Translations under genes and position numbers: made by a program | From: a virus | Lineage: Duplodnaviria; Heunggongvirae; Uroviricota; Caudoviricetes | Length of the DNA: 19,187 bases | IMG/VR virus record: IMGVR_UViG_2657244943_000004 | Reading direction: 5' to 3' (one strand) | The notes under the pieces: model-generated | What the model was told of the DNA's origin: nothing | Seen by the model: only the letters and a program-made list of their open reading frames with translations | Database searches by the model: none | Shown: piece after piece, positions 5,456-19,125 of the stretch | How positions within the stretch are numbered: position 1 is the stretch's first letter | Layout: every line of letters begins with the position of its first letter

Positions 5456-6010
5456 TTATAAACCAACGCGCTCTTTCATCCAGCCATAGACAAACGACTC
5501 GTTAGCCTCGCGTTTCTCTGCCAGCGCCAGATAACGCTCACCCTGCGTACAGTTCAGGGCTTTCACCAGTACCAGTTCGCCATCCCTGCCGCGATTTTTC
5601 AGATAAGAACGTAACGCATTAATGGTTCGCGGCCCGATCCCCCCGTCTGTAACTATGTCCGGATACAGCATTCCCTTCTGATTAAACACATTCAGCCAGC
5701 GCTGAAGCATTTTTGTGGCTACCGACGGCCCCATGTTTACCCCGGTATCACACAGTTCTGCAGCAATATCAGGAGACAGGTTTGCCACCTGGTCAAAACG
5801 AGGTCCATACCAATAGTCCGCCTCAAGGATTTCCAGAGCCTGCCCGCGGCTCAAATCACGCATATCACCACGGTAACCATGCGCGCGCGCCACTTTTTCA
5901 GTAATTCCCCACTTCGTCGCTCCGCCTGTATCGTCAGGATGACTGACATAACCCCCCTCTTTTCCGAGGATTTCATCAAAAATTTCATCTCTCGATTTCA
6001 TATCAGCCAC
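5456..6010 (-). CDS. Endolysin, glycoside hydrolase family 108-like with predicted peptidoglycan-binding C-terminal region
   Basis: 184 aa. The N-terminal motif EGGYVSHPDDTGGATKWGIT is characteristic of GH108 N-acetylmuramidases. Last gene of the lysis cassette; start overlaps the upstream gene by 8 nt. Confidence 0.8.
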   Translation of the reverse strand: MADMKSRDEIFDEILGKEGGYVSHPDDTGGATKWGITEKVARAHGYRGDMRDLSRGQALEILEADYWYGPRFDQVANLSPDIAAELCDTGVNMGPSVATKMLQRWLNVFNQKGMLYPDIVTDGGIGPRTINALRSYLKNRGRDGELVLVKALNCTQGERYLALAEKREANESFVYGWMKERVGL

Positions 6011-6281
6011 TCAGGAAAGCAAAAATTTTTGAAACATTACCGCGCGCACGCACTACCATGACACCAAATACCAGGTTCAGCATCACCACCAGCCAGTCTG
6101 CCGGCAACGGATGACCACAGAGATAACTTAACGGCGTTATCGCATACAACAGCATCAGACACCAGGCGCACCACGATATCAGCGGTTTGTGTCGTGACTC
6201 TTTTCTGCGGTAGAAAAAAAGCGTCAGCACGATAACCGTACATAACGCCGCATTCAGTAATCCTGGAAGATTATTTGTCAT
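6003..6281 (-). CDS. Small two-TM membrane protein in lysis cassette (holin/antiholin-like or lysis accessory)
   Basis: 92 aa from the ATG at 6281, preceded by GGAGGAGG; hydrophobic segments LLNAALCTVIVLTLFFY and LVVMLNLVFGVMVV. Overlaps the putative holin stop and the endolysin start. The ORF-track start at 6299 is a GTG. Confidence 0.55.
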   Translation of the reverse strand: MTNNLPGLLNAALCTVIVLTLFFYRRKESRHKPLISWCAWCLMLLYAITPLSYLCGHPLPADWLVVMLNLVFGVMVVRARGNVSKIFAFLSG

Positions 6282-6663
6282 TACCACCACCTCCTCCACG
6301 CTGACGGGAGAACAGACCGGATACCAGTGATGTAATCTCCTGCTGGTGGATGAATGACAGGACTTTTACTGAGAGCACCGACACCAGGACCGCACACAAC
6401 GCATCAACGGAAGCACTGTTAAACCCAATACGTTCCGCCATGTAACCGGCCACACCACGGGCCCCAAGCACACCAACAATAAAGGACACCAGAAAATGTG
6501 CAGCCACACGCCAGGCTGAAAGTGTCTGCGGCATTGTTGCCACAAATAACGCACCAGCGAACGCACCAAATACAATCCCGAAATCCGTCCCGGTAAACAG
6601 CCCGAATACCGTCGCCCCGCCGAGCGCCACAGCAGTGCCGGAACCGGATAAGGGTTCAGACAT
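6271..6663 (-). CDS. Putative holin (about three TM segments)
   Basis: 130 aa from the ATG at 6663 with an AGGAGA RBS; Gly/Ala-rich hydrophobic segments; first gene of the lysis cassette. No similarity to lambda S, so the assignment is positional and topological. Confidence 0.6.
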   Translation of the reverse strand: MSEPLSGSGTAVALGGATVFGLFTGTDFGIVFGAFAGALFVATMPQTLSAWRVAAHFLVSFIVGVLGARGVAGYMAERIGFNSASVDALCAVLVSVLSVKVLSFIHQQEITSLVSGLFSRQRGGGGGNDK

Positions 6664-7498: not shown

Positions 7499-7924
7499 TC
7501 ACAGATACTGCTCCAGTGGTAACTGAAGCGCCTGTGCAATTTTCTTGAGCTGCGCTTCTTCATCCGGACCAATGCCATCCTGATCAGCGATATCCAGACA
7601 GAGGCAAAGCACGTCAACCGCCTCAGTTGTCCCCGCCACATCAGCCAGCTCACGTAATGCATGCGCATTCGCACTACGCGGTGACGCTTCATAACGGGCG
7701 CGGATATTGGCGCTCATCTGGGCAATCTCACCAGAGAACGGTGCAAAAGCAGGAAGCGCAGCAATGGTTTTCTCCAGTACTGCGATTTCTTTTGCGTCGC
7801 AGGTGCCGTCGGCATATGCAATGGAATATGCGCCCCAGACGGTCGCCTCCACCGCATCACGGTTCTCCATCTTCTTCACTTCAGTGATGGCCTTGCGGGT
7901 TTTCTTTTTGAAAATACCTAACAT
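7499..7924 (-). CDS. TerB-family (tellurite-resistance TerB-like) protein
   Basis: 141 aa; N- and C-terminal acidic motifs typical of TerB (YADGTCDAKEIAVLEKTIA ... DIADQDGIGPDEEAQLKKIAQALQL). Own transcription unit, downstream of the terminator at 8059-8082. Confidence 0.7.
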   Translation of the reverse strand: MLGIFKKKTRKAITEVKKMENRDAVEATVWGAYSIAYADGTCDAKEIAVLEKTIAALPAFAPFSGEIAQMSANIRARYEASPRSANAHALRELADVAGTTEAVDVLCLCLDIADQDGIGPDEEAQLKKIAQALQLPLEQYL

Positions 7925-8058
7925 CGTGACTTTTCCTTTGCGTAGACGAGCCTGCGCCAGATGGTTACCAGCCCACAGTGAAAGTCACACTGACAATCCC
8001 GTAAGCACCTCCTGAAAGGCTCTGTGTTTTTGATGTGCGCCAGGTGTGGCTCAGATAC

Positions 8059-8082
8059 AAAAAAAGCTCGCCGTAGCGAGCT
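8059..8082 (-). terminator. Rho-independent terminator (minus strand)
   Basis: Perfect 7-bp stem agctcgc / gcgagct with 4-nt loop, followed on the minus strand by a run of 7 U (plus-strand A-run 8059-8065); 24 nt after the stop of the 8106..8384 gene. Confidence 0.65.
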
Positions 8083-8105
8083 AACAGAAAATATGAAGCA
8101 TGTTT

Positions 8106-8384
8106 TTATCCACGAAGCATGACAATGAACTCATCCATGCCTACACGGCTGGCTATCTCGTTGTATTCCTCAACAAGAGCCAGCAATTCTGAATTAGCAG
8201 CCATGAACTCATCAAAAACCTTATGGATGGCATCACTGTTTAATAAAACAATGTTCTTTCCTGAAAGGCGATCAGGGGTAGAAAATATAACTGTTAAACG
8301 ACTAAAGGCCCTGGCTCGTTCAGCATTAACATCCTCAATACGCTGCAACAAGCTGGAGCACCTGGAAATATCATCAATATTCAC
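8106..8384 (-). CDS. Hypothetical protein, 92 aa
   Basis: GTG start at 8384 preceded by AGGAG with 4-nt spacing; followed by a clean terminator. No homology recognised. Confidence 0.5.
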   Translation of the reverse strand: MNIDDISRCSSLLQRIEDVNAERARAFSRLTVIFSTPDRLSGKNIVLLNSDAIHKVFDEFMAANSELLALVEEYNEIASRVGMDEFIVMLRG

Positions 8385-8903
8385 TCTACTCCTGCCATCT
8401 GGATGATAATCATTTCACGGAGAGAAGCACTCAGAAGTACCACTGAAGTATAACTGGTGACCAGCTGCTTACACATCTGTTGCCATCCTGCTGATGATAA
8501 GTCGATATTAACCCTTCTGTCTATAAACGAAACAAAGGATAAGTTCAGGTTTTAAACACACTGCCAGGATAAAGTATTGTATACAGTATAGAAGAGCGTT
8601 ATTGAATGACATAAAAAACCAGACCTAATCCCTTATCCGGAATATATATCAAATAAACGGGGAAAATGTATTAAGATGGCGTTCCTATTCTCTCCATCCC
8701 TGATGTCCACGTAACTCGTTATAGAATCAGAACGCCATCTGAATACACACAAAAAAGCTGGCTTCACACCCTCCTGCATGTGTGAACGCAGTGCCCGACC
8801 ACGTGCTTTCGCAACCAGCGAAAATCAGTTTTAAATACCGAAAAACGATAAGAATATATCAGAACTTCCAAGCATCCTGCTTGGCTTAGATATTAATCGA
8901 AGA

Positions 8904-9989
8904 TTAGCTCCTGTTCTTATCTAATTGTGCATTTCGCAATTTATCGTTCAGCACCAATATTTCACCAACTGTTTGTTCAAAACGCCCGGACTCAAGTTCA
9001 ACCCCAATCGTGCGACGCCCCAATCCCATTGCTGCTTTTATTGTTGCCCCCGATCCCATAAAAAAATCCGCAACCACATCCCCCGGACGACTGCTGGCAG
9101 AAATTATCTGACGCAACATATCCGCCGGTTTTTCGCAGGGATGCTTACCCGGATAATACTGTACGGGCTTATGCGTCCAGACATCCGTATAAGGAACGGC
9201 GGCCGATACAGAAAAATAACGCCGCAGAGATTTGTATTCCTCAAGCAGACTGGCATATTGCCGGTTCAGTTCACTGTATGTGCTGACCAGCAGTTGGTGT
9301 GGCGTTGCCAGCTCCCCACGCTGGTGTTTTTCTTCTGCAACACGCGCGAACAGCGCCTGCAGTTTTCTGTAATCAGCTTCGTTCGGTAACTGCCACTGAC
9401 TGGTACCAAACCAGTGCGACACCATGTTTTTCTTTCCGGTGGCTTCCGCTATCTGTTTGGACGTTATTCCCAGTGATTCACGCGCATCACGAAAGTAAAA
9501 AATCAGCGGGGCCATGACGTGTTGTTTAAGCTCGCGCTCCTTTGCCGCATAGCCGGCATTTTTTGGCTGATATGGCCCCTGATAATGTTCGGCAAACAGA
9601 ATGCGCTCTGTTGCCGGGAAATACGCCCGCAGGCTTTCTTTGTTGCACCCGTTCCAGCGTCCGGACGGCTTCGCCCAGATAATGTGGTTCAGCACATTAA
9701 AGCGCTCACGCATCATGATTTCGATATCAGATGCCAGGCGATGACCACAAAACAGGTAAAGACTTCCGGCAGGCTTCAGTACCCGCCAGAACTGAGCCAG
9801 ACACTGGTCCAGCCATTTCAGGTAATCATCGTCTCCCTTCCACTGGTTATCCCAGCCCTCGGGCTTCACTTTAAAATATGGCGGGTCTGTGACTATAAGA
9901 TCGACAGAGTTTTCCGATAAGGTCTGGATAAATTCCAGGCAATCGGTGTTGATTAACTCACAACTGGATATTTTTACAGTATCAACCAT
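8904..9989 (-). CDS. DNA methyltransferase, beta-class amino-MTase (N6-adenine or N4-cytosine), probably orphan
   Basis: 361 aa; catalytic DPPY motif near the N-terminus (LIVTDPPYF) and AdoMet motif near the C-terminus (VVADFFMGSGAT), i.e. beta-class order; about 120-aa insert between them. Architecture resembles YhdJ-type MTases. No restriction endonuclease gene nearby. Confidence 0.88.
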   Translation of the reverse strand: MVDTVKISSCELINTDCLEFIQTLSENSVDLIVTDPPYFKVKPEGWDNQWKGDDDYLKWLDQCLAQFWRVLKPAGSLYLFCGHRLASDIEIMMRERFNVLNHIIWAKPSGRWNGCNKESLRAYFPATERILFAEHYQGPYQPKNAGYAAKERELKQHVMAPLIFYFRDARESLGITSKQIAEATGKKNMVSHWFGTSQWQLPNEADYRKLQALFARVAEEKHQRGELATPHQLLVSTYSELNRQYASLLEEYKSLRRYFSVSAAVPYTDVWTHKPVQYYPGKHPCEKPADMLRQIISASSRPGDVVADFFMGSGATIKAAMGLGRRTIGVELESGRFEQTVGEILVLNDKLRNAQLDKNRS

Positions 9990-10139
9990 AGATCAATAAG
10001 CACTTCTCTGATAGGCTCATACCGCTTTTGCGCAAAGCGGATGGGCCTGAGGTTTGCTTGTGACCCCGATTCATGAGCAGATGGCTGGCAGGTGCCGCTA
10101 ACACCCACCAGCCGCCCATTACCACAAAGTAAAAAGCCT

Positions 10140-10337
10140 TCACTGCGGAAGGCGTCTGTAACAACCGAACTGATAATCTGCCAGACCCGCCATAACAAGC
10201 TGGGTCAGTATTAACTGGCAGCGTTCGCGTGAAAGGTAAGTATTCTGCGCAATTTCCCCAACTGTTGCCGGTTCAGTGACGCTTAATTCATTAAACACCA
10301 CTCTGGCTGTTTCTGTCATATCCTGCTGTTTTAGCAT
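10140..10337 (-). CDS. Small putative winged-helix DNA-binding protein (65 aa)
   Basis: Product contains PATVGEIAQNTYLSRERCQLILTQLVMAGLA, which looks like an HTH/winged-helix. Purine-rich region before the ATG. Between the membrane protein and MTase genes, same strand. Confidence 0.45.
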   Translation of the reverse strand: MLKQQDMTETARVVFNELSVTEPATVGEIAQNTYLSRERCQLILTQLVMAGLADYQFGCYRRLPQ

Positions 10338-10510
10338 GTCTTTTTCTCTTTATTGGTTAACGTGACATACCAATAACTCTTGTCGAAGAAGCCAGCAAGC
10401 TGAAAGACCGGTATTAATAACCACCTGCACATTTTATGTACCGAACCATTTTTCTGGCATAAAAAACCTCTCAATGGCGGGCGGTAAAAATCTTTGTTAC
10501 TCAAGAAATT

Positions 10511-11224
10511 TTAACGCACTCTGACTGTATTAATTTCAAAATCATTAATATTTCCGCTATTAAATATAACGAATTTCTTACCCCCACTCCTGTATGATTT
10601 CGATAACACCAGACGATCATCATAACGCGCAATAATGTAATACCATACATTCTCATAGTGGATCGCCTGATATTCCCTCTTAAACTGTGGTTTGTACCAA
10701 CCGGCAATAAGAGAGAATGCCCAGAAATAAATCATAAACCCAGCCATCATGAACTCAATTCGGTGATGGCGAATAAAAGACATTTCCGAAAAACATTTGA
10801 CTGAAACAAGTCTTCTTCCAGACCTGACAAAAAGCGTGATTGTAAAGGCAGCAAGAATGCAGAAAATCAGTACATCTGGCTCAACATGCTGATGAATTAC
10901 CGAAAACTCCAGAACAGGTGGAATAAAAAGCAGCAATATCGCGAGAAAAAGCCGGATAAAACTCAAATTTTGTATATTGCGCTTTTGTTTTATGCCCAAA
11001 AAGAAAACAATACCAACTCCCCATCCAATAAGGAATATAACGATAACTGTCACAGCATAAAACAAACTTCGTGCAACATCATCGACACCAGCCCCGACAA
11101 CCCACCATGGAAAGCCATAGTAAAATGAAGTACCCCATCCATAGAAATAAGCGCTTCCCCATCCTAGACAGCCCATATAAGCAACAAAAAGTGAAGAGTT
11201 TCTGAGCAGAGCACTGTCATTCAT
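10511..11224 (-). CDS. Multi-pass membrane protein of unknown function (237 aa), AT-rich accessory gene
   Basis: Several hydrophobic segments rich in aromatic/Gly residues; C-terminal soluble tail of about 60 aa. Visibly more AT-rich than flanking phage genes. First gene after the tR'-like terminator. Confidence 0.6.
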   Translation of the reverse strand: MNDSALLRNSSLFVAYMGCLGWGSAYFYGWGTSFYYGFPWWVVGAGVDDVARSLFYAVTVIVIFLIGWGVGIVFFLGIKQKRNIQNLSFIRLFLAILLLFIPPVLEFSVIHQHVEPDVLIFCILAAFTITLFVRSGRRLVSVKCFSEMSFIRHHRIEFMMAGFMIYFWAFSLIAGWYKPQFKREYQAIHYENVWYYIIARYDDRLVLSKSYRSGGKKFVIFNSGNINDFEINTVRVR

Positions 11225-11478: not shown

Positions 11479-12144
11479 CTATGAAAATGCCGCCTTTTGT
11501 TTTGAACGTGTTCTCTCCACTAACAATAAAGCTTCACTATCCAGCCGATGAAAAATGTGTTTCATTGCAACCCAGTGACCAGTAAATGTCTTGGACCAGT
11601 TTTTGGTTGTTACTCCCACCAGTAACGCCAGTTCCTGGTATTCGTAACCTTCCCCACCAAAAAGCTCAGCTTTTACCGCCTGCGCCACCAACCAGATCAA
11701 CGTCTTCAGGCGCACCAGAGTTTTTCCTGCAATTTTTCTGGTACCGGATTGAGCATTAAATTCAGTCCACGCCCACTGCGTTATCGCGATCTGATGCTCC
11801 CAGCAAATGCTACCGCTGTAACACCACAGCAGCCAGGCTTTATGATGTTCTTCAAGAGACAGAACGGCGCGTCGCCATGATGATGTCGAAAACTCAACCG
11901 GACTGACCAGGGCAATTGATGAACCTTTCGCCAGCGATTGCTTTCCCGGGATCGGTGGATTATCCAGCGTTACTATTTTTCCAGTGACCTTATCGCGGTA
12001 CCGGATTTTTTTACGTCTGTAACGCCCTGTATTGAACATGGCATTCTCCTGCCAGGCTTCAAGCTGACCTTTTGTTGCTCCACTCAAATCAGCGGTGGCG
12101 ATCGTGAGCTGCTCACGCACAAACTGTAAATACTGGTTATTCAT
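11479..12144 (-). CDS. Putative late-gene antiterminator (Q-like), 221 aa
   Basis: Called mainly by synteny: directly downstream of rusA (ATG overlaps the rusA stop as ATGA) and directly upstream of the promoter/terminator pair and lysis genes. No Cys zinc-finger as in lambda Q. The family is not confirmed. Confidence 0.55.
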   Translation of the reverse strand: MNNQYLQFVREQLTIATADLSGATKGQLEAWQENAMFNTGRYRRKKIRYRDKVTGKIVTLDNPPIPGKQSLAKGSSIALVSPVEFSTSSWRRAVLSLEEHHKAWLLWCYSGSICWEHQIAITQWAWTEFNAQSGTRKIAGKTLVRLKTLIWLVAQAVKAELFGGEGYEYQELALLVGVTTKNWSKTFTGHWVAMKHIFHRLDSEALLLVERTRSKQKAAFS

Positions 12145-12500
12145 GCGCACTCCAGTTCTGTGATTTTTATCCCCAGCCGACCACCGGGAACAACCTGACC
12201 GCGCATAATATTAACTTCATCAAACTGCTCGTCGTCGATAAGCAGTCCCGCATGTGTCAGTGCATCCAGTGGTGCTTTCAGAATATTGTCCAGGTCACGA
12301 CGGCGCTTATCCGGTGGCTCTGCAATAATTTTTATTGCCAGCCTTCCGGACAGATTTAATTTCAGCCGCTGCTGGCGAACAATAAGCGCCACATCCCGGC
12401 GATAACGCTCCCCTGCTTTTGATACAAAATATGTGCTGCCACGACGACGCCAGTAGGTATTTACCGTCGGCGGGTAAGGCAAAACAAATTCTATCCCCAT
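12141..12500 (-). CDS. rusA: Holliday-junction resolvase RusA
   Basis: 119 aa from the ATG at 12500; RRDLDN motif (PPDKRRRDLDNILKAPLDALTHAGLLIDD) and overall resemblance to E. coli RusA. Typical nin-region position. Confidence 0.9.
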   Translation of the reverse strand: MGIEFVLPYPPTVNTYWRRRGSTYFVSKAGERYRRDVALIVRQQRLKLNLSGRLAIKIIAEPPDKRRRDLDNILKAPLDALTHAGLLIDDEQFDEVNIMRGQVVPGGRLGIKITELECA

Positions 12501-12512
12501 CAATAACCTCTT

Positions 12513-13490
12513 TTATCCGAGCACGCCGGTTGCAAAGGCGTGATCAAGAAAACGAAAAATTAAATCAACCTGAGAACCATGCTTTTCTTCGAACGCCAAC
12601 GGATCTGCATGAAGCTCGTTATGATGTTTACGACACAACGGTAACGTGAAAATATCGTGGGCCTTTGTTCCCATTCCGCCCTGACCATGACCTATCAGGT
12701 GATGGGGATCGTCAGCTGGCTTACCACAGCACGCACACGACTGTGTCTTTACCCAGCGTGTGTATTTCTCATTTACCCAACGGCGACGTTTAGGTCGCTT
12801 CATGAAAGATTCCGGGGACTCAGGATCAACGGCGATGCTTACCACCGCCTTTTCCTGTGGTGAGTTTTGTTGCTGGTGGACGTGAGGCGGTAGCGCAATA
12901 TTTTTTGTGCGCTGCTTCAGTATGCTGGTGGCTGTCTGTTCTCCCGGTACGATGTCGCTCTCGCGATACACAGAGAGGATTTTTTCCACCGGTAATCCCA
13001 ACGAACGACGTGATACTGCCTCAGGTAGAGCATCCACCACCTGATTGCAAACCGCCCACCAGGATAATTCAGCCAGCGATAATTCCCGCTCCTGCGTGCC
13101 ATTCATTGCGTGACGTATAACCTCAAGCATCCAGGCTGTCAGATTTTGTTGAGCAAGTTGCTCGAGTGATTCCGATGTCTGGTCGCGCAGCTGGTTGTCG
13201 CAGTGCCAGCACAATACCATCGCGCCGGTACCGTAACGGTGAATAACGGTTTCACTATGGTGGTAATCACCATGAGGCCACTGGCAGGATTTGACATGGC
13301 GCAGTAACCAGTCAGACAGTGCACCAGCGCCGCCAGCAGCACGAATCACTCGTTTGTTACTGAAAAACGGCAGTAATGATTTATCCTCCGCCAGCGGCTG
13401 GCGAACGGTAGGGACGACTCCGGACGGCAGACCGCGCATGCTTTTTGGTTCCGGCTCCACCAGTACTCTGTCGTTATGGAATACCGACAT
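12513..13490 (-). CDS. DUF968-family prophage protein with HNH-like Cys/His motif
   Basis: C-terminal CACCGKPADDPHHLIGHGQGGMGTKAHD...LCRKHHNELH resembles the DUF968/YdfU-type nin-region protein. ORF track start 13562 is a GTG; the ATG at 13490 is an alternative, so the N-terminus is uncertain. Confidence 0.7.
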   Translation of the reverse strand: MSVFHNDRVLVEPEPKSMRGLPSGVVPTVRQPLAEDKSLLPFFSNKRVIRAAGGAGALSDWLLRHVKSCQWPHGDYHHSETVIHRYGTGAMVLCWHCDNQLRDQTSESLEQLAQQNLTAWMLEVIRHAMNGTQERELSLAELSWWAVCNQVVDALPEAVSRRSLGLPVEKILSVYRESDIVPGEQTATSILKQRTKNIALPPHVHQQQNSPQEKAVVSIAVDPESPESFMKRPKRRRWVNEKYTRWVKTQSCACCGKPADDPHHLIGHGQGGMGTKAHDIFTLPLCRKHHNELHADPLAFEEKHGSQVDLIFRFLDHAFATGVLG

Positions 13491-13563
13491 TGATTCACGG
13501 CCTGGCTTAACGATAACCACCCCGAGTTCCGGTACCGGTACAGGTCGAAGTAATACCCGCACG

Positions 13564-14226: not shown

Positions 14227-14457
14227 TCAAGTTAAGTGTGGGTGCATTGAGGATGCCTGACTCATCAGAGGTGGCGAGGGATTTCTCCCTCGCCTGGTCT
14301 CTAACTCCTCAGGTTCGTAAGCTGTGAAGACAGCGACCTCCGTTTGGCTGGTTCGGATTCGTACCTCACAGAGATCTTTCCTCGTTACCAGTGCCGTCAC
14401 AATGACAGTTAAACAGATGACAATCAGGGCGATTAACATCGCCTTATGCTGCTTCAT
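14227..14457 (-). CDS. hok: Hok/Gef-family type I toxin gene with C-terminal read-through extension (or pseudogene)
   Basis: From the ATG at 14457: MKQHKAMLIALIVICLTVIVTALVTRKDLCEVRIRTSQTEVAVFTAYEPEE, a near match to chromosomal Hok/Gef toxins (about 50 aa). The codon at 14302-14304, where the stop is expected, is TTA, so the frame continues 26 codons to TGA at 14227-14229. Which hok paralogue this is remains uncertain. Confidence 0.85.
   Translation of the reverse strand: MKQHKAMLIALIVICLTVIVTALVTRKDLCEVRIRTSQTEVAVFTAYEPEELETRRGRNPSPPLMSQASSMHPHLT
14273..14294 (-). other. Perfect 9-bp hairpin in the hok 3' region
   Basis: ggcgaggga-tttc-tccctcgcc; position corresponds to the 3' stem-loop of hok-family mRNAs. 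It lies inside the extended reading frame. Confidence 0.6.
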
Positions 14458-15084
14458 AGCCTGCTTCTCCTTGCCTTTCGGCACGTAAGAGGCTAACCTA
14501 CGTGTGCAAGTCATAGATATGGCCTCAGATTAATGTTAGGCGTCTTGCAGGACGCGTAATGTTAACTGGGGCTTTTCTCTATCTGCCGTTGGTATTCATG
14601 CCTGAGACAGATAGCCTCAAGCACCCGCAGCAATCCTACTTAACTCCCGTCACCTCGCCAATATAAAATCAATCAGAAAGGCGATCCATAAGAACAACAG
14701 CAAGACAATAAATTGCCATTACAGCCGCAATAGCGAGCGCACATTTGAGAACCAGCACGACAACCTCCTGTATTGGACGTACACCAGTCCTGATAAATAT
14801 GAGGCTGTCTCATCATTGATTCAATAAAACTATTGGGAATAGTTTCTGTGATTTTGTTCTGTAGAAATGGAACACAACAACCAGTCACCACCAGCACTTC
14901 TTTAAAAACGCCAAGTCCGACGCAAGCTAACCTTCTAGTCCGCTTTGAACGATGAGCGGAAATTGACATATCTGTTAAAGTGAATGGTTCGTTTTGCAGG
15001 GATACTTACACTGCCCCCTGTCAAAATGATATACCGAAGAATAAGAGTTCTTCTTCAAGAACAACAAAAAGAGATCATTCCAGC

Positions 15085-15318
15085 ATGCTGGAAACGCAGC
15101 GTGTAATGATGACGGATAAGACTCTGGCGCATTCCATGACAGCGGCAAAGGCCATAGCAGCCAATCAGATAGCTAGAATAGCCGCGAGGAAGGAAAGCCA
15201 CCAGCAAAATGAAGCCATCGAGCGCTTGCGCGTAAATACGCGAATCTTAAACGGCGCAGAGATGCAGATTTACCCGCAACTGGCGACTTCAGCAATGAAC
15301 CGCATACAGACCGAGTAA
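15085..15318 (+). CDS. Hypothetical small protein (about 77 aa), predicted helical
   Basis: ORF track 14980..15318; the in-frame ATG at 15085 has a weak SD. Ala/Gln-rich helical-looking product (TAAKAIAANQIARIAARKESHQQNEAIERLRVN). Plus strand, 165 nt upstream of the kinase gene. Confidence 0.4.
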   Translation: MLETQRVMMTDKTLAHSMTAAKAIAANQIARIAARKESHQQNEAIERLRVNTRILNGAEMQIYPQLATSAMNRIQTE

Positions 15319-15482
15319 GTGATGCGCTGGATGCCGTATTGAAAAGACAGCCAGAAAAGCGGTATTGGGTTCCAGAGGGTTTTAGAGGTTAAAGCGCTCA
15401 CAAATCTAGCTAATTTGTAACCATCTTTAAACGTTTATGATATTGTTAAATAAAACTAAAACTACCACGGCATGATTTACCG

Positions 15483-16181
15483 ATGAAAAAAGAACTTGAA
15501 ACCATACTGCCTGAGTTTGGTGAGGCAATTCGCCCTTACGTTTATAGTTACGTAACAGCAAACAAAAATGCCAATGCCAAGCACGTCCTGTTTATGGCTG
15601 GTTCGCCTGCTGCAGGTAAAACCGAGCTCTTAAATCGTCTTTTAGAACAACATGGCATCACAAACATTGTTCGAATTGATGCTGATGATTTTCGCTGGTG
15701 GTTCCCCTACTACAATGAAGAGAACTCTGTGGACTATCAGAGACCTGCCTCCAGAATGGTCGATTTTATCTACAAAAAAGCGCTATCTGAAGGCTATCCC
15801 ATTGTTATGGACTCTACTTTCTCCAGTATAGGTATTGCGGAGAGAAACTTTGATCTGGCCCTGAAGGCTGGTTATCAGGTAGCACTGAATTACGTCTATT
15901 TTGATCCGGCTTACGCGTGGGTTTTTGCCCAAGCCCGCTCTCGTAAGGTTCCGTTAGAGGTTCTTAAAGCGAACTTTTTCAAGAGCAGAGAGACCATTGA
16001 ACATATGCTCGCGAAATATGCAGGCCTATTTACACTCAATGTTTATCATCGACGGGAAGATCCTGAAAATGATGGTCAGTTCGTGGTCGACTATACTCCT
16101 AACGTGACCCTTGAAAACTGGACTACCTCCCATAGCTGCCCATATTCAGACGTTAGCGATCTAGCGCATTTAGGTGTATAA
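15483..16181 (+). CDS. Zeta-toxin-like P-loop kinase (AAA-like NTP-binding domain)
   Basis: Walker A GSPAAGKTE at residues 40-48, followed by VRIDADDFRWWFP, resembling the catalytic Asp region of zeta/PezT-type kinases; 232 aa. Family assignment from motifs only. Confidence 0.7.
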   Translation: MKKELETILPEFGEAIRPYVYSYVTANKNANAKHVLFMAGSPAAGKTELLNRLLEQHGITNIVRIDADDFRWWFPYYNEENSVDYQRPASRMVDFIYKKALSEGYPIVMDSTFSSIGIAERNFDLALKAGYQVALNYVYFDPAYAWVFAQARSRKVPLEVLKANFFKSRETIEHMLAKYAGLFTLNVYHRREDPENDGQFVVDYTPNVTLENWTTSHSCPYSDVSDLAHLGV

Positions 16182-16200
16182 TAAGTGTCCTATCTAAGGA

Positions 16201-16833
16201 GTGTATATGTCTGTTAAAACTGAAGCCATTAAACCAGTTGCTGAAATTTCGTTGTTCGATGCATTCGGACCTAACGTGAGCGAGCGGGTACAAGCCATCA
16301 ACCGGAAGGCCGCTGAGCTTTCTATGGCTGATATGGCTCAGGTAATGGACGTGACATTATCGTCTAGGAAGAAACTGGAAGTAACTGCTGAGAGCAAATA
16401 TATTCTCGATTTTCCTCAATGGCTAGAAGTCAATGCACGGAAACCTGGAGTTTCTTTTGACATGAAAGCATACACTTCTGTTGAAGTTAAAAAGATGCAT
16501 GTTCCTGACTTTCGCCAGTTCCTTCCTGTAGGTGCAAATATGTTGCATACCTATTCACCAATCGGTAAAACGGGCCTGCAAGGAATTCATGATTATTTAA
16601 TCGGTGCTGTTTCATCTAAACTTCATCACTTGCAAGGTGTCGGAGTTGATGAGGGCACGTTTAAAATACTTATCCGCTATGAAGATGCTAAAACGGGTGC
16701 TCCCCGCAATGATATAGTTGAAGCTGAGTCGACAATTAGCCCAAGTTCTTTCACTAGGCTCAAGCCCCGTGTGAAAAAACTTCGCAGAAAAGGTCATGAA
16801 ATGGCGATGCATGCACTAATTGCCAAAAAATAG
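16201..16833 (+). CDS. Hypothetical protein (210 aa), translationally coupled partner of the zeta-like kinase
   Basis: Starts 20 nt after the kinase stop with a strong SD (AAGGAG); followed by a terminator. No motif recognised; basic C-terminal tail (KPRVKKLRRKGH). Confidence 0.6.
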   Translation: MYMSVKTEAIKPVAEISLFDAFGPNVSERVQAINRKAAELSMADMAQVMDVTLSSRKKLEVTAESKYILDFPQWLEVNARKPGVSFDMKAYTSVEVKKMHVPDFRQFLPVGANMLHTYSPIGKTGLQGIHDYLIGAVSSKLHHLQGVGVDEGTFKILIRYEDAKTGAPRNDIVEAESTISPSSFTRLKPRVKKLRRKGHEMAMHALIAKK

Positions 16834-16846
16834 TAAGCCCTTAACA

Positions 16847-16876
16847 AAACCTCACTCGATTGTGAGGTTTTTGCTT
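16847..16876 (+). terminator. Rho-independent terminator ending the kinase operon
   Basis: Perfect 9-bp stem aaacctcac / gtgaggttt with 6-nt loop, followed by a T-rich tract (ttgctttct). Confidence 0.65.
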
Positions 16877-17371
16877 TCTGGCGTTCTAAAAGTCAATCAC
16901 TCCAGCTCACCAGCGCGGTTAATCTCTAAAACCGATTTAGTTTTCGGCATAGTGCCCTTCGTCGTCTCTTTCTGCGTACATCAAACAACATCTACGGCCC
17001 ATAGCGGATCACCATCAGCATGCAGCCACTGACTGGTTAAAGTCTCCTTTTCGTTTATCTTAGCAAGCTGGTACTGCGTGTGGATCCCGCCCATTTCTGC
17101 ATACTGTCGAAAATCGATGAGATGGCCAGTCGTGTTTGTTATTGGTCTATTTTTGAAAACAACTATCAATGCTATTGGTCTGTTCTTCGTTAATTAATAT
17201 GCAATCCTTTCATGACACAGGGCTACTGTTACAGCCCTGACAACCTTAGACTTCAATCGATTCAGAGATCTCTAACGCATCATCGCCCCGTTGAACTCAC
17301 AGCGATAAGTAGACGCTGGCGGCAATAACACAGAAGTATAGCGGGAATTTGAACCACATAATTTATGTTTG

Positions 17372-17824
17372 TTAGATGGCTTTGCTTCGATATTCAATTT
17401 CTAAAATCGCCTTTGTCATTGCCGCAATAGTTATAGCTTCTACCATAGTTAATTCAGGCCTGTTCAAGCTTCCGTGTCCAGCAGTAGGTAGTTTGTTGCG
17501 TAAATCATAAATATCTTTAACAACATCAATAAGATTCTTAGGTAATTTTGACATTTTTTCGAACTGTTTAAAAAAACCACCCAATGACTCATTTGCCACA
17601 TTCGGGTTTTGAGTGATTTCCTTCGCCATAGTTTCTAGAATATTAGAGGCTGCGTGCAGTGCACCCGCCGGGTCATTATTATCCAAGCAATTATTCATTC
17701 TATCTATTTGCTGAATGATATTTGGATGCAATCTCTTTAAGTAATCACTAGCCAATTCTTCATTGAAGTTTTTGACACTTTCAAAAACATCGCAATCTAA
17801 ATAAAATTTAGGATTGACTGACAT
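17372..17824 (-). CDS. Hypothetical protein (150 aa), AT-rich accessory gene
   Basis: Clean ORF in strongly AT-rich DNA; helical-looking, no recognised motif. Downstream partner of 17894..18238. Confidence 0.5.
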   Translation of the reverse strand: MSVNPKFYLDCDVFESVKNFNEELASDYLKRLHPNIIQQIDRMNNCLDNNDPAGALHAASNILETMAKEITQNPNVANESLGGFFKQFEKMSKLPKNLIDVVKDIYDLRNKLPTAGHGSLNRPELTMVEAITIAAMTKAILEIEYRSKAI

Positions 17825-17893: not shown

Positions 17894-18238
17894 CTAATCA
17901 ACATATTTACACATATAATCGGCGTAATAGTGTAAATATCTAAATGATATTTCTGGGCAAAAATTACTAACTGATGCAAGGCCGCCATATTCTTTTGTAG
18001 TAACTGTTGGGACTTCTTCATCACATAAATATGAGAAACTAGTTCTTTCCCAAAATTCGCCCAACTCTTTTTCTTTCCTAGTTGCCATACCAGCTATCAT
18101 ATTGATGCTTGAGAGCAAAACTACACTCTGATAGTACTGAGGACATCTGTATGAACTAGCATATGGGCATTTTGATGATGCTTTACGATTAATACGCTCT
18201 TTTTCCCACCAATTTTTATCAGGAATAATTCTTTGCAT
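17894..18238 (-). CDS. Hypothetical Cys-rich protein (114 aa), AT-rich accessory gene
   Basis: Contains CPYASSYRCPQYY and several further Cys (possible metal-binding); weak RBS. Preceded by a 460-bp AT-rich region with repeats. Confidence 0.45.
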   Translation of the reverse strand: MQRIIPDKNWWEKERINRKASSKCPYASSYRCPQYYQSVVLLSSINMIAGMATRKEKELGEFWERTSFSYLCDEEVPTVTTKEYGGLASVSNFCPEISFRYLHYYADYMCKYVD

Positions 18239-18702: not shown

Positions 18703-19125
18703 TCACTTCAATAAATAGCGAACATTTCCCTGATAAAATGCCAACACTCGCTGCATTACTTCACTTTCCAGACACTCGCGACAAACCATGTTATGGCGAC
18801 TATCGTAGCGACGAATTTCTCCGTCAGGTAATGACCAGATAAGGTCCGGATCAACCATAGACGGTTTCTTCCCCTTTGCCCTCGATAGTTTTTTGCGGGC
18901 GTTTTGCCAGTCCTTACGAGCCTGTTCTGACGGGAATAACCCATAGCCAGAGTTGTATACATCGCCACTGGCAACCAGCTCCTTGGCAAGAACGCTAATC
19001 AGATATCTTGTCGCACCTGTTTTAGCTTCCAGCTGTCGTAACGTCTCGCGCCCACTCTGGCGTACGAGTGCAACAACCTGTCCCTTAATTTTTTCCCGCT
19101 CTTCTTGTGTGTAAGCGTGCAGCAA
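18703..19125 (-). CDS. Hypothetical protein, possibly DNA-binding (140 aa)
   Basis: Phage-like GC content; HTH-like segment (TGATRYLISVLAKELVASGD) and basic stretch (ARKDWQNARKKLSRAKGKK). No family recognised. Confidence 0.45.
   Translation of the reverse strand: MLHAYTQEEREKIKGQVVALVRQSGRETLRQLEAKTGATRYLISVLAKELVASGDVYNSGYGLFPSEQARKDWQNARKKLSRAKGKKPSMVDPDLIWSLPDGEIRRYDSRHNMVCRECLESEVMQRVLAFYQGNVRYLLK

Follow-up and report, generated by a model that had tools for sequence, protein, structure and literature searches.

A zeta/PezT-like kinase gene followed by a modular partner gene in an E. coli prophage: a candidate toxin-first toxin–antitoxin cassette

The toxins of the epsilon/zeta and PezAT systems (Pfam family PF06414; Protein Data Bank (PDB) entries 1gvn, 3q8x and 2p5t) are kinases of the zeta/PezT superfamily. 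An aspartate, D67 in zeta and D66 in PezT, acts as the catalytic base that deprotonates the substrate, and a GTXR motif is needed in both proteins for binding of UDP-N-acetylglucosamine (UDP-GlcNAc) (PMC6362051). The superfamily also contains a validated pair in which the toxin gene comes first and the antitoxin gene lies immediately downstream, AvrRxo1:Arc1 (PMC4938570), and the PezT-like Rv0366c-Rv0367c system of M. tuberculosis, which keeps the P-loop and the catalytic aspartate, lacks GTXR and has been proposed to act on another substrate (PMC6362051). EzeT, a zeta-family kinase of E. coli, is neutralised in a non-canonical way (PMC4826407), and a review from 2023 notes orphan pezT/zeta toxins without a cognate antitoxin (PMC10532202). 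Here we compare with these systems a two-gene cassette carried by IMG/VR virus record IMGVR_UViG_2657244943_000004, a stretch of 19,187 nucleotides (the window) from a lambdoid (Rac/Qin-like) prophage of E. coli. The cassette encodes a kinase and a partner protein, a pair for which literature searches returned no description.

The kinase gene (15483–16181, plus strand, 232 aa) is followed on the same strand, after a gap of 25 nt, by the partner gene (16207–16833, 208 aa). The two same-strand open reading frames (ORFs), kinase first, had been noticed in a reading of the window made from its letters alone (the sequence-only reading), which proposed them as a candidate for an undescribed toxin or abortive-infection module. 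The observation was borne out with small corrections, and the interpretation as a whole is partly supported. On balance, we read the cassette as a toxin-first zeta-type toxin–antitoxin module with a new modular antitoxin, the kinase being the presumed toxin and the partner the presumed antitoxin and/or sensor. We base this reading on the family of the kinase and its intact catalytic residues, the linkage of the two genes, the mosaic make-up of the partner, the anatomy of the operon and the genomic contexts in which it is found, all of which are direct observations.

The kinase matched Pfam Zeta_toxin over residues 28–181 with an expectation value (E) of 7e-29 (101.1 bits, cut-off 22.3). When PDB sequences were searched with phmmer, only PezT and zeta were matched, PezT (2p5t) with E 1.4e-10. 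An AlphaFold2 (AF2) model of the kinase, built from 25 relatives, had a predicted local distance difference test score (pLDDT) of 91. The top Foldseek matches of this model were zeta (1gvn, 3q8x) and PezT (2p5t), at a template-modelling (TM) score of about 0.67; chain 1gvn_B gave E 1.1e-10 and a query TM score (TMq) of 0.67, and 2p5t_B gave E 2.3e-9. AvrRxo1, which phmmer did not find among PDB sequences, formed the second-best structural group and was matched more weakly than zeta and PezT (E 2.4e-7, TMq 0.57). It was followed by PSTK, PFK-2 and polynucleotide kinases. Since the zeta, PezT and AvrRxo1 structures come first, an identity as a housekeeping or phage nucleotide kinase is unsupported; the polynucleotide and nucleotide kinases reached a Foldseek E of about 2e-6, against 1e-10 for the best match, and the PHROG polynucleotide kinase was matched with E 1e-4.

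Both motifs on which the sequence-only reading had based its assignment to the zeta/PezT kinases were found: the Walker A P-loop GSPAAGKT at residues 40–47 (15600–15623) and the IDxDDFR signature, here IDADDFR, at residues 65–71 (15675–15695). G40, P42, G45, K46 and T47 are invariant across 25 family members, and in the alignment K46 corresponds to PezT K45 and D68 to PezT D66 and zeta D67. A family-specific aromatic stretch, WWFPYYN, follows directly after IDADDFR. The alignment with PezT further places D94 opposite E99 and D110 opposite E115. K46, D68, D110, R152, R154 and R169 are invariant in the kinase family, and D94 is not. The sequence DSTFSS (residues 110–115, 15810–15827) occupies the E-GTXR position: G116-T117-L118-R119 of PezT aligns with S111-T112-F113-S114, such that the threonine (T112) is kept and the glycine and arginine are replaced. 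With the GTXR motif lost, UDP-GlcNAc cannot be assumed to be the substrate. From its conserved residues the kinase nevertheless looks catalytically competent. Both genes are under purifying selection and are therefore real genes, not chance ORFs; the ratio of non-synonymous to synonymous substitution rates (dN/dS) of the kinase, 0.05–0.12, agrees with its competence.

To follow the two genes through other genomes we compared distinct loci with an intact kinase, which comprise the E. coli locus, a Klebsiella prophage, three Enterobacter plasmid contexts, three Pectobacterium loci, and one locus each from Serratia, Pluralibacter and Pantoea. In all 11, an ORF that opens with the same segment of about 48 codons, which we call the N-module, starts 25–26 nt past the stop codon of the kinase and is preceded by a conserved Shine-Dalgarno sequence. 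The flanking genes are wholly different between loci, and thus the two genes travel together as a cassette; the pair is conserved together across genera and genomic contexts, as an earlier proposal to check its co-occurrence had envisaged. Over 55 pairwise comparisons, identity between kinases correlated with identity between N-modules at r = 0.94, and with identity over the rest of the partner at r = 0.72.

Two of the Enterobacter plasmids, with partner genes at 6001–6648 (L005) and 8001–8645 (L027), are 97–100% identical over the kinase gene, at least 600 nt of DNA 5′ of it and the partner gene up to about codon 45; to the right of this point, downstream flank included, identity is about 50%. 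This sharp drop within the partner gene places a recombination breakpoint exactly at the end of the N-module. Short forms of the partner also occur: the Pluralibacter partner is 58 aa long and consists of the N-module alone, beside an intact kinase, and that of Pectobacterium versatile has 125 aa and lacks the helix–hairpin region found at the C-terminus of longer forms. Co-inheritance, breakpoint and short forms together point to kinase and N-module as the functional unit that is conserved, and the remainder of the partner is apparently accessory and exchangeable.

Partner and kinase are not lost symmetrically. An Enterobacter plasmid (L030, GCA_048685015.1) has, some 6 kb away from its intact pair, an orphan second partner gene (14597–15277), whose 226-aa product is 81% identical to the paired partner. 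Upstream of the orphan, about 15 nt of the 3′ end are all that is left of a kinase gene, together with the intergenic Shine-Dalgarno region, indicating that the kinase was deleted and the partner kept. In two further loci (L040 and L041) the kinase is disrupted, its reading frame falling into two ORFs, and the partner is shortened to 57 aa. The only kinase without a partner is itself truncated, at about residue 133 (L038), and no intact kinase without an N-module was found among the loci examined, a small sample. Modules without kinase, but no intact kinase without module, are what one would expect of a kinase that does harm in the absence of the N-module.

The sequence-only reading had described the partner as an unknown protein, and this description held: no significant match was obtained in Pfam, NCBIfam, PHROGs, PADLOC or the PDB, the last searched by sequence and by profile. 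The same reading had given it 210 aa from a GTG codon at 16201, 20 nt after the kinase gene. That GTG overlaps the Shine-Dalgarno sequence AAGGAG and the homologues begin at the ATG, and we therefore place the start at ATG 16207, which shortens the product to 208 aa and widens the gap to 25 nt. RefSeq annotates the gene from the same ATG, and all homologues begin MSVKTEA or MSFE. Searches for homologues of the partner gave 23 clusters from a set of 5.8 billion sequences and 34 representatives from one of 1.84 billion representative proteins, two of the latter matches being spurious: in these two (P0070 and P0076) nine stretches each match the C-terminal hairpin, and Pfam assigns them Ig or CUB repeats or low complexity. 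All named members of the family come from Enterobacterales.

Three segments can be distinguished in the partner. The N-module (codons 1–48, 16207–16350), with the consensus SLFDxFGPxxSxxxxAxNxRAAELSMxDMA, is strongly conserved and is the sole part found in every locus. Two short helices are predicted in it, its dN/dS is about 0.2–0.3 in most pairs, and serines S15, S25 and S39 are invariant or nearly so. Its invariant core (I/L)SLFD (ISLFD, residues 14–18, 16246–16260) resembles QL(S/D)LF, the pentapeptide that binds the bacterial beta-clamp, and the likeness may be coincidental. The middle segment (codons 49–124, 16351–16578) is hypervariable, varies in length and is predicted to be disordered (pLDDT <50); with a nucleotide identity of about 0.3 between loci it is barely alignable, its dN/dS is 0.7–1.0, and it is missing from the 58-aa and 125-aa forms. 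The C-terminal region (codons 125–208, 16579–16830) consists of a predicted helix, a beta-hairpin with the pattern GVDxxxxxIxIxYxDPxTG and a basic tail whose last two residues are KK. Conservation of this region is moderate (dN/dS 0.3–0.6), and it is missing in the Pluralibacter (L018) and P. versatile (L019) partners. One homologue, P0079, has two N-modules; it lies on a contig of 643 nt, the context of which is uninformative. A polymorphic toxin/immunity arrangement was considered and rejected, as neither a toxin-like C-terminal domain nor a domain related to secretion is present and an immunity gene is lacking downstream.

The cassette shares with epsilon/zeta and PezAT the fold and family of the kinase, the P-loop, the catalytic aspartate and the lid arginines, and like them it forms a two-gene operon on mobile elements. 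It differs from them in having the kinase first, the reverse order, in having neither omega nor a helix-turn-helix (HTH) regulator, and in the replacement of GTXR by STF(S/A). The partner is unlike epsilon and PezA in sequence, larger and modular, and no conserved upstream ORF for an antitoxin of the epsilon/PezA type was present in the loci compared. EzeT has a cis-acting antitoxin domain fused to the N-terminus of the kinase, whereas here the candidate neutraliser is a separate downstream gene. With 232 aa and a kinase domain that starts at about residue 28, the protein has no such fused domain. The Rv0366c-Rv0367c kinase resembles ours in having the P-loop and the catalytic aspartate and in being without the UDP-GlcNAc motif; there, however, the antitoxin is encoded upstream and has a ribbon-helix-helix domain, while the partner here is encoded downstream and belongs to an unrelated family.

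The toxin-first order itself is shared with AvrRxo1:Arc1, whose toxin (PDB 4z8v) is a zeta-like NAD kinase and whose downstream gene encodes an antitoxin/chaperone. The claim in the sequence-only reading that the kinase-first architecture could be assigned to no described family was therefore overstated, this pair being a validated toxin-first precedent (PMC4938570). The substrate of AvrRxo1 is not UDP-GlcNAc, which parallels the loss of GTXR in the kinase studied here. The two systems differ in other respects: AvrRxo1 has 414–421 aa with an N-terminus for type III secretion, against 232 aa, and Arc1 has 81–121 aa with the motif KExFD(x25-27)(Y/L)ExxYY (PMC4938570), against a partner of 208 aa in whose family alignment this motif is absent. 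Distant relatives of the kinase (33–36% identity), from a metagenome and from an Enterococcus record, are also followed by a conserved ORF, here of 54–55 aa (L013 5695–5859; L037 2636–2803). The two small ORFs have an NRKQRE motif in common (pairwise E 8e-7), and a homologue search with the 54-aa ORF returned two clusters only. As distant relatives too have a downstream ORF, the kinase-first order seems to be a trait of this whole branch of the zeta family, in which a small downstream gene may be the rule.

The N-module also occurs free in phages. A small protein beginning ...ELDFLDIFGPTPTERGESLLNKAAKDSMDQMAEVINS is encoded by two cultured phages of the T5-like group (Demerecviridae). These are Pantoea phage vB_PagS_AAS21, with gp168 (MK770119.1, 98743–99024; L035 2489–2770), and Erwinia phage KEY, with gp151 (key_151; MZ616364.1, 98520–98837; L036 1453–1770). 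Metagenomic phage contigs carry further free modules (L033 765–1070; L034 1382–1687), again with no kinase close by; the neighbours of a 101-aa protein with two N-module-like motifs on one such contig all match PHROGs (E 1e-20 to 1e-93), and P0084 has two tandem copies. Over 43 residues AAS21 gp168 and the Pantoea partner are 42% identical and 70% similar (pairwise E 7e-11), and hhalign aligned the phage protein with the N-module at 93.7% probability (E 1.9e-7). In the whole phage collection, tblastn with the N-module of the Pantoea partner as query matched AAS21 and KEY only (E 2e-4), and a related kinase is absent from both phages. The N-module would thus seem to be an autonomous unit. It may serve as an antitoxin mimic in lytic phages that infect Pantoea, a genus among the hosts of the cassette, or its relative Erwinia, and these copies are the strongest hint that the cassette could have a role in defence.

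The sequence-only reading had called the pair a self-contained operon ending in a clean terminator, and both descriptions were confirmed. A Shine-Dalgarno sequence, AAGGAG (16196–16201), lies 5 nt before the partner ATG in the 25-nt gap, and as AAGGAG, GAGGAG or TAGGAG it is kept in all loci examined. After the partner gene comes an intrinsic terminator (16846–16876), a GC-containing hairpin at 16846–16871 with a 10-bp stem (AAAACCTCAC/GTGAGGTTTT) followed by a run of T. Its folding z-score was -4.1, and none of 200 shuffled sequences folded equally well. A run of A on the other side suggests that it could act bidirectionally. Hairpins are present 3′ of the partner stop codon in most homologous loci.

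The start of the operon is less clear. The hexamers TTGTAA (15415–15420) and TATGAT (15436–15441), read from the sequence as a promoter at 15415–15441, are indeed present. The promoter call stays unverified, since the spacer is only 15 nt, a consensus scan did not call the pair, and promoter-like sites in the region are no commoner than in shuffled sequence. TTGTAA is common to one Pectobacterium locus (L003), and the -10 region has a 17-nt indel relative to L003 and L005. No clear common promoter was found on aligning the upstream regions of the loci, in which conservation begins only about 45 nt 5′ of the kinase ATG.

The most conserved DNA of the operon lies instead at the junction of the two genes. 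It comprises the 3′ end of the kinase gene, the intergenic region and the first 48 or so partner codons (16140–16350), with a mean pairwise identity of 0.84–0.91 over 16140–16260. The synonymous substitution rate (dS) of the N-module, 0.3–0.6, is well below that of the kinase, 1.2–2.0; an internal promoter, an RNA structure or homogenisation by recombination could be responsible. A perfect TATAAT (16177–16182) overlaps the kinase stop codon. This hexamer, together with the high conservation of the junction, makes it possible that a transcript of the partner alone is produced.

A mechanism can be proposed from these features. The kinase would be an active P-loop phosphotransferase and, by homology, would be toxic through phosphorylation of a small molecule that the cell cannot do without. 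Since the GTXR motif is missing, this molecule is perhaps not UDP-GlcNAc; NAD-type or other nucleotides are possible, as with AvrRxo1. The partner would be translated from its strong, conserved ribosome-binding site on the kinase transcript and most likely neutralises the kinase, through an N-module of about 48 aa that would bind it. The linker, the C-terminal domain and the basic tail would be accessory and might, speculatively, set the stability of the protein, bind DNA for autoregulation or sense a trigger. The model for this idea is toxin-first systems such as MqsRA, in which the toxin-binding and DNA-binding halves of the antitoxin are separate. The module probably serves maintenance of the element that carries it and/or phage defence of the abortive-infection type, in which case the free N-modules of T5-like phages would be a counter-measure. 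Toxicity, neutralisation by the N-module, the substrate and the defence role are the parts of this scheme that we infer.

Several observations weigh against a toxin–antitoxin module with a new antitoxin. Neither as a single sequence nor as a profile did the partner match the epsilon and PezA chains of the PDB, and a resemblance to Arc1 was undetectable. Its AF2 model had a pLDDT of 51 and was mostly disordered, a poor prediction. The family consensus at the GTXR position of the kinase is S-T-F-(S/A), so that a motif by which membership among the UDP-GlcNAc kinases is judged is not conserved, and the known toxic mechanism is not simply transferable. PADLOC-DB v2.0.0, which covers systems described up to 2023, gave no partner match and no significant kinase match; the best kinase matches, DndF (E 0.041) and PDC-S41 (E 0.06), were both P-loop noise. 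Finally, the independent loci number about a dozen, a small sample, and the co-location with defence genes is anecdotal.

It is possible, though we hold it only tentatively, that the cassette is an undescribed abortive-infection system composed of a non-UDP-GlcNAc zeta-like kinase and a new class of modular antitoxin that holds it in check, in which infection would free the kinase by way of the variable or degradable region of the partner, and in which the phage N-modules (AAS21 gp168, KEY gp151) would be anti-defence mimics. A pure addiction cassette, a selfish toxin–antitoxin pair of prophages and plasmids without a role in defence, would make the phage N-modules functionally unrelated or a matter of chance. 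Classical epsilon/zeta is a plasmid-maintenance system (title of PDB 1gvn), and the cassette does lie on plasmids beside partition and leading-region genes (ParB, PsiA/B, hok, RepL) and as isolated islets between core genes. Yet a simple addiction system has no need of a swappable, variable partner region, the cassette sits beside PARIS in Klebsiella and near PD-Lambda-1 in Enterobacter, and the presence of the N-module in lytic T5-like phages of Pantoea and Erwinia is most easily explained by a conflict between phage and module; we therefore consider pure addiction unlikely. That the kinase is no toxin at all appears to us improbable. The partner might then be its substrate, scaffold or regulator, with the N-module serines or a beneficial metabolite being phosphorylated, and the loss of the UDP-GlcNAc-binding GTXR motif, the conservation of S15, S25 and S39 and a kinase-first order unusual among toxin–antitoxin pairs would all fit. 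The closest relatives in sequence and structure (zeta, PezT, AvrRxo1) are, however, all toxins, the distribution is rare, patchy and tied to mobile elements, the neighbours are toxin–antitoxin and defence genes, and the asymmetry between module and kinase presence fits a toxin–antitoxin pair.

Two further arrangements assign other roles to the protein downstream. If the kinase were inert until the variable region of the partner detected a phage component, the partner would be an activator, sensor or adaptor in a two-component abortive-infection system; the variable, recombining middle and C-terminal regions do look like a specificity domain, and the N-module accompanies the kinase in the manner of a docking unit. 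But loci with only a 58-aa N-module beside an intact kinase would then be left with no sensor, partners exist as orphans without a kinase, and a near-neutral middle segment (dN/dS 0.7–1.0) with predicted disorder suits a linker better than a folded sensor, which makes this arrangement very improbable. The last candidate concerns the DNA upstream of the kinase, where the sequence-only reading had seen no small antitoxin gene immediately before it. There is in fact a same-strand ORF of 77 aa (15085–15318; RefSeq WP_000894818.1), which lies 165 nt before the kinase gene and has the size of an antitoxin; as the true antitoxin it would restore the canonical epsilon/zeta order and leave the 208-aa protein as a third component. 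The earlier statement holds to the extent that the pair and this ORF are not conserved together: the ORF does not precede the pair in Pectobacterium, Enterobacter, Pantoea, Serratia and Pluralibacter, its slot in Klebsiella holds an unrelated DUF1737 ORF, and only its last 60 nt or so lie inside the block common to Klebsiella. It has no family match. We rejected it for its lack of conservation with the pair and assign it next to no probability.

If the toxin–antitoxin reading is confirmed, the partner would be a third kind of partner for zeta-type toxins, after epsilon/PezA and Arc1, in which exchangeable sequence is attached to a docking module of about 48 aa. The cassette also defines, in Enterobacterales, a zeta branch without the UDP-GlcNAc motif. 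Modules of this type may explain some of the orphan pezT/zeta toxins, and the free N-modules of T5-like phages make a defence/counter-defence relationship directly testable. The cassette is not categorically new, and it is unsurprising in kind, because toxin–antitoxin-type morons are common in prophage hotspots.

The distribution of the cassette is rare and patchy, and its carriers are prophages, plasmids and islands. It was found in 8 of 5426 complete E. coli genomes and at only five loci among 185,579 species represented by one genome each; no record of the phage collection contained it whole. In the Klebsiella pneumoniae prophage (L023, CP021955.1) a PARIS-like AriA/AriB pair (9232–11136; AriA E 1e-32, AriB E 2e-10) lies directly downstream of the cassette, in the same slot as in E. 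coli, between the replication genes and DinI/DUF968/Q; an AAA_15/methylase pair and HicAB are also present in this prophage. The slot resembles a defence hotspot, and, lying between the replication and DUF968/Q genes and holding PARIS in Klebsiella, it is a place to mine for further systems. Among the Enterobacter plasmid contexts, one has PD-Lambda-1 (E 8e-232) as a neighbour, one a ShosA-like gene with a DprA fold (E 7e-102; L005 3745–4638, with a copy at L027 6090–6650) and one hok, psiAB and parB, and in Pectobacterium the cassette is on an integrase island with RelE/HTH. These are typical surroundings of toxin–antitoxin and defence cassettes. The ShosA-like gene lies about 640 nt upstream of the kinase, no ShosT was seen nearby, and truncation has left the L027 copy with 186 aa; either the gene is an antitoxin-like orphan or it has some tie to the cassette.

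In the window, the prophage genes are on the minus strand. They include the large terminase (900–2870), lysis genes, a DNA methyltransferase, and Q, RusA and DUF968 (11479–13562). hokD and then DUF977 (18703–19125), both on the minus strand, bracket the plus-strand kinase and partner ORFs, so that, as the sequence-only reading had stated, the cassette runs antisense to the prophage. It occupies a variable island of about 3.5 kb amid toxin–antitoxin and defence genes. Sliding-window pairwise alignment with the Klebsiella prophage L023 defined a transferable block at 15257–17109 (plus strand) of at least 90% identity, and identity drops to about 50% on either side. On the hokD side, the match to other E. 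coli prophages ends near 14960. GC content in the island is below that of its surroundings, 0.42–0.45 in the cassette and 0.34 in the adjoining minus-strand genes.

The hokD/mok type I toxin gene (14227–14626, minus strand; Pfam HOK_GEF, E 3e-21) adjoins the island. The sok antitoxin RNA was matched there over its full length in Rfam (14452–14626, 108 bits), and RefSeq marks hokD as partial in strain ARS-C301. Two very AT-rich genes (GC about 0.34), 17372–17824 and 17894–18238, both on the minus strand, share the island and are present in the eight E. coli genomes that have the cassette. The former encodes a protein of 150 aa that matches Abi_C below threshold (E 1.2e-4; 22.6 bits, cut-off 24), the 114-aa product of the latter is Cys-rich and belongs to no family, and neither matches PADLOC; the two may be another small defence-type moron. 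Elsewhere in the window, and again on the minus strand, are genes for a family-less multi-pass membrane protein of 237 aa (10511–11224), a TerB-domain protein (7499–7924) and an orphan-looking type II DNA methyltransferase (8904–9989), which matched PADLOC MTase_II with E 3.5e-152.

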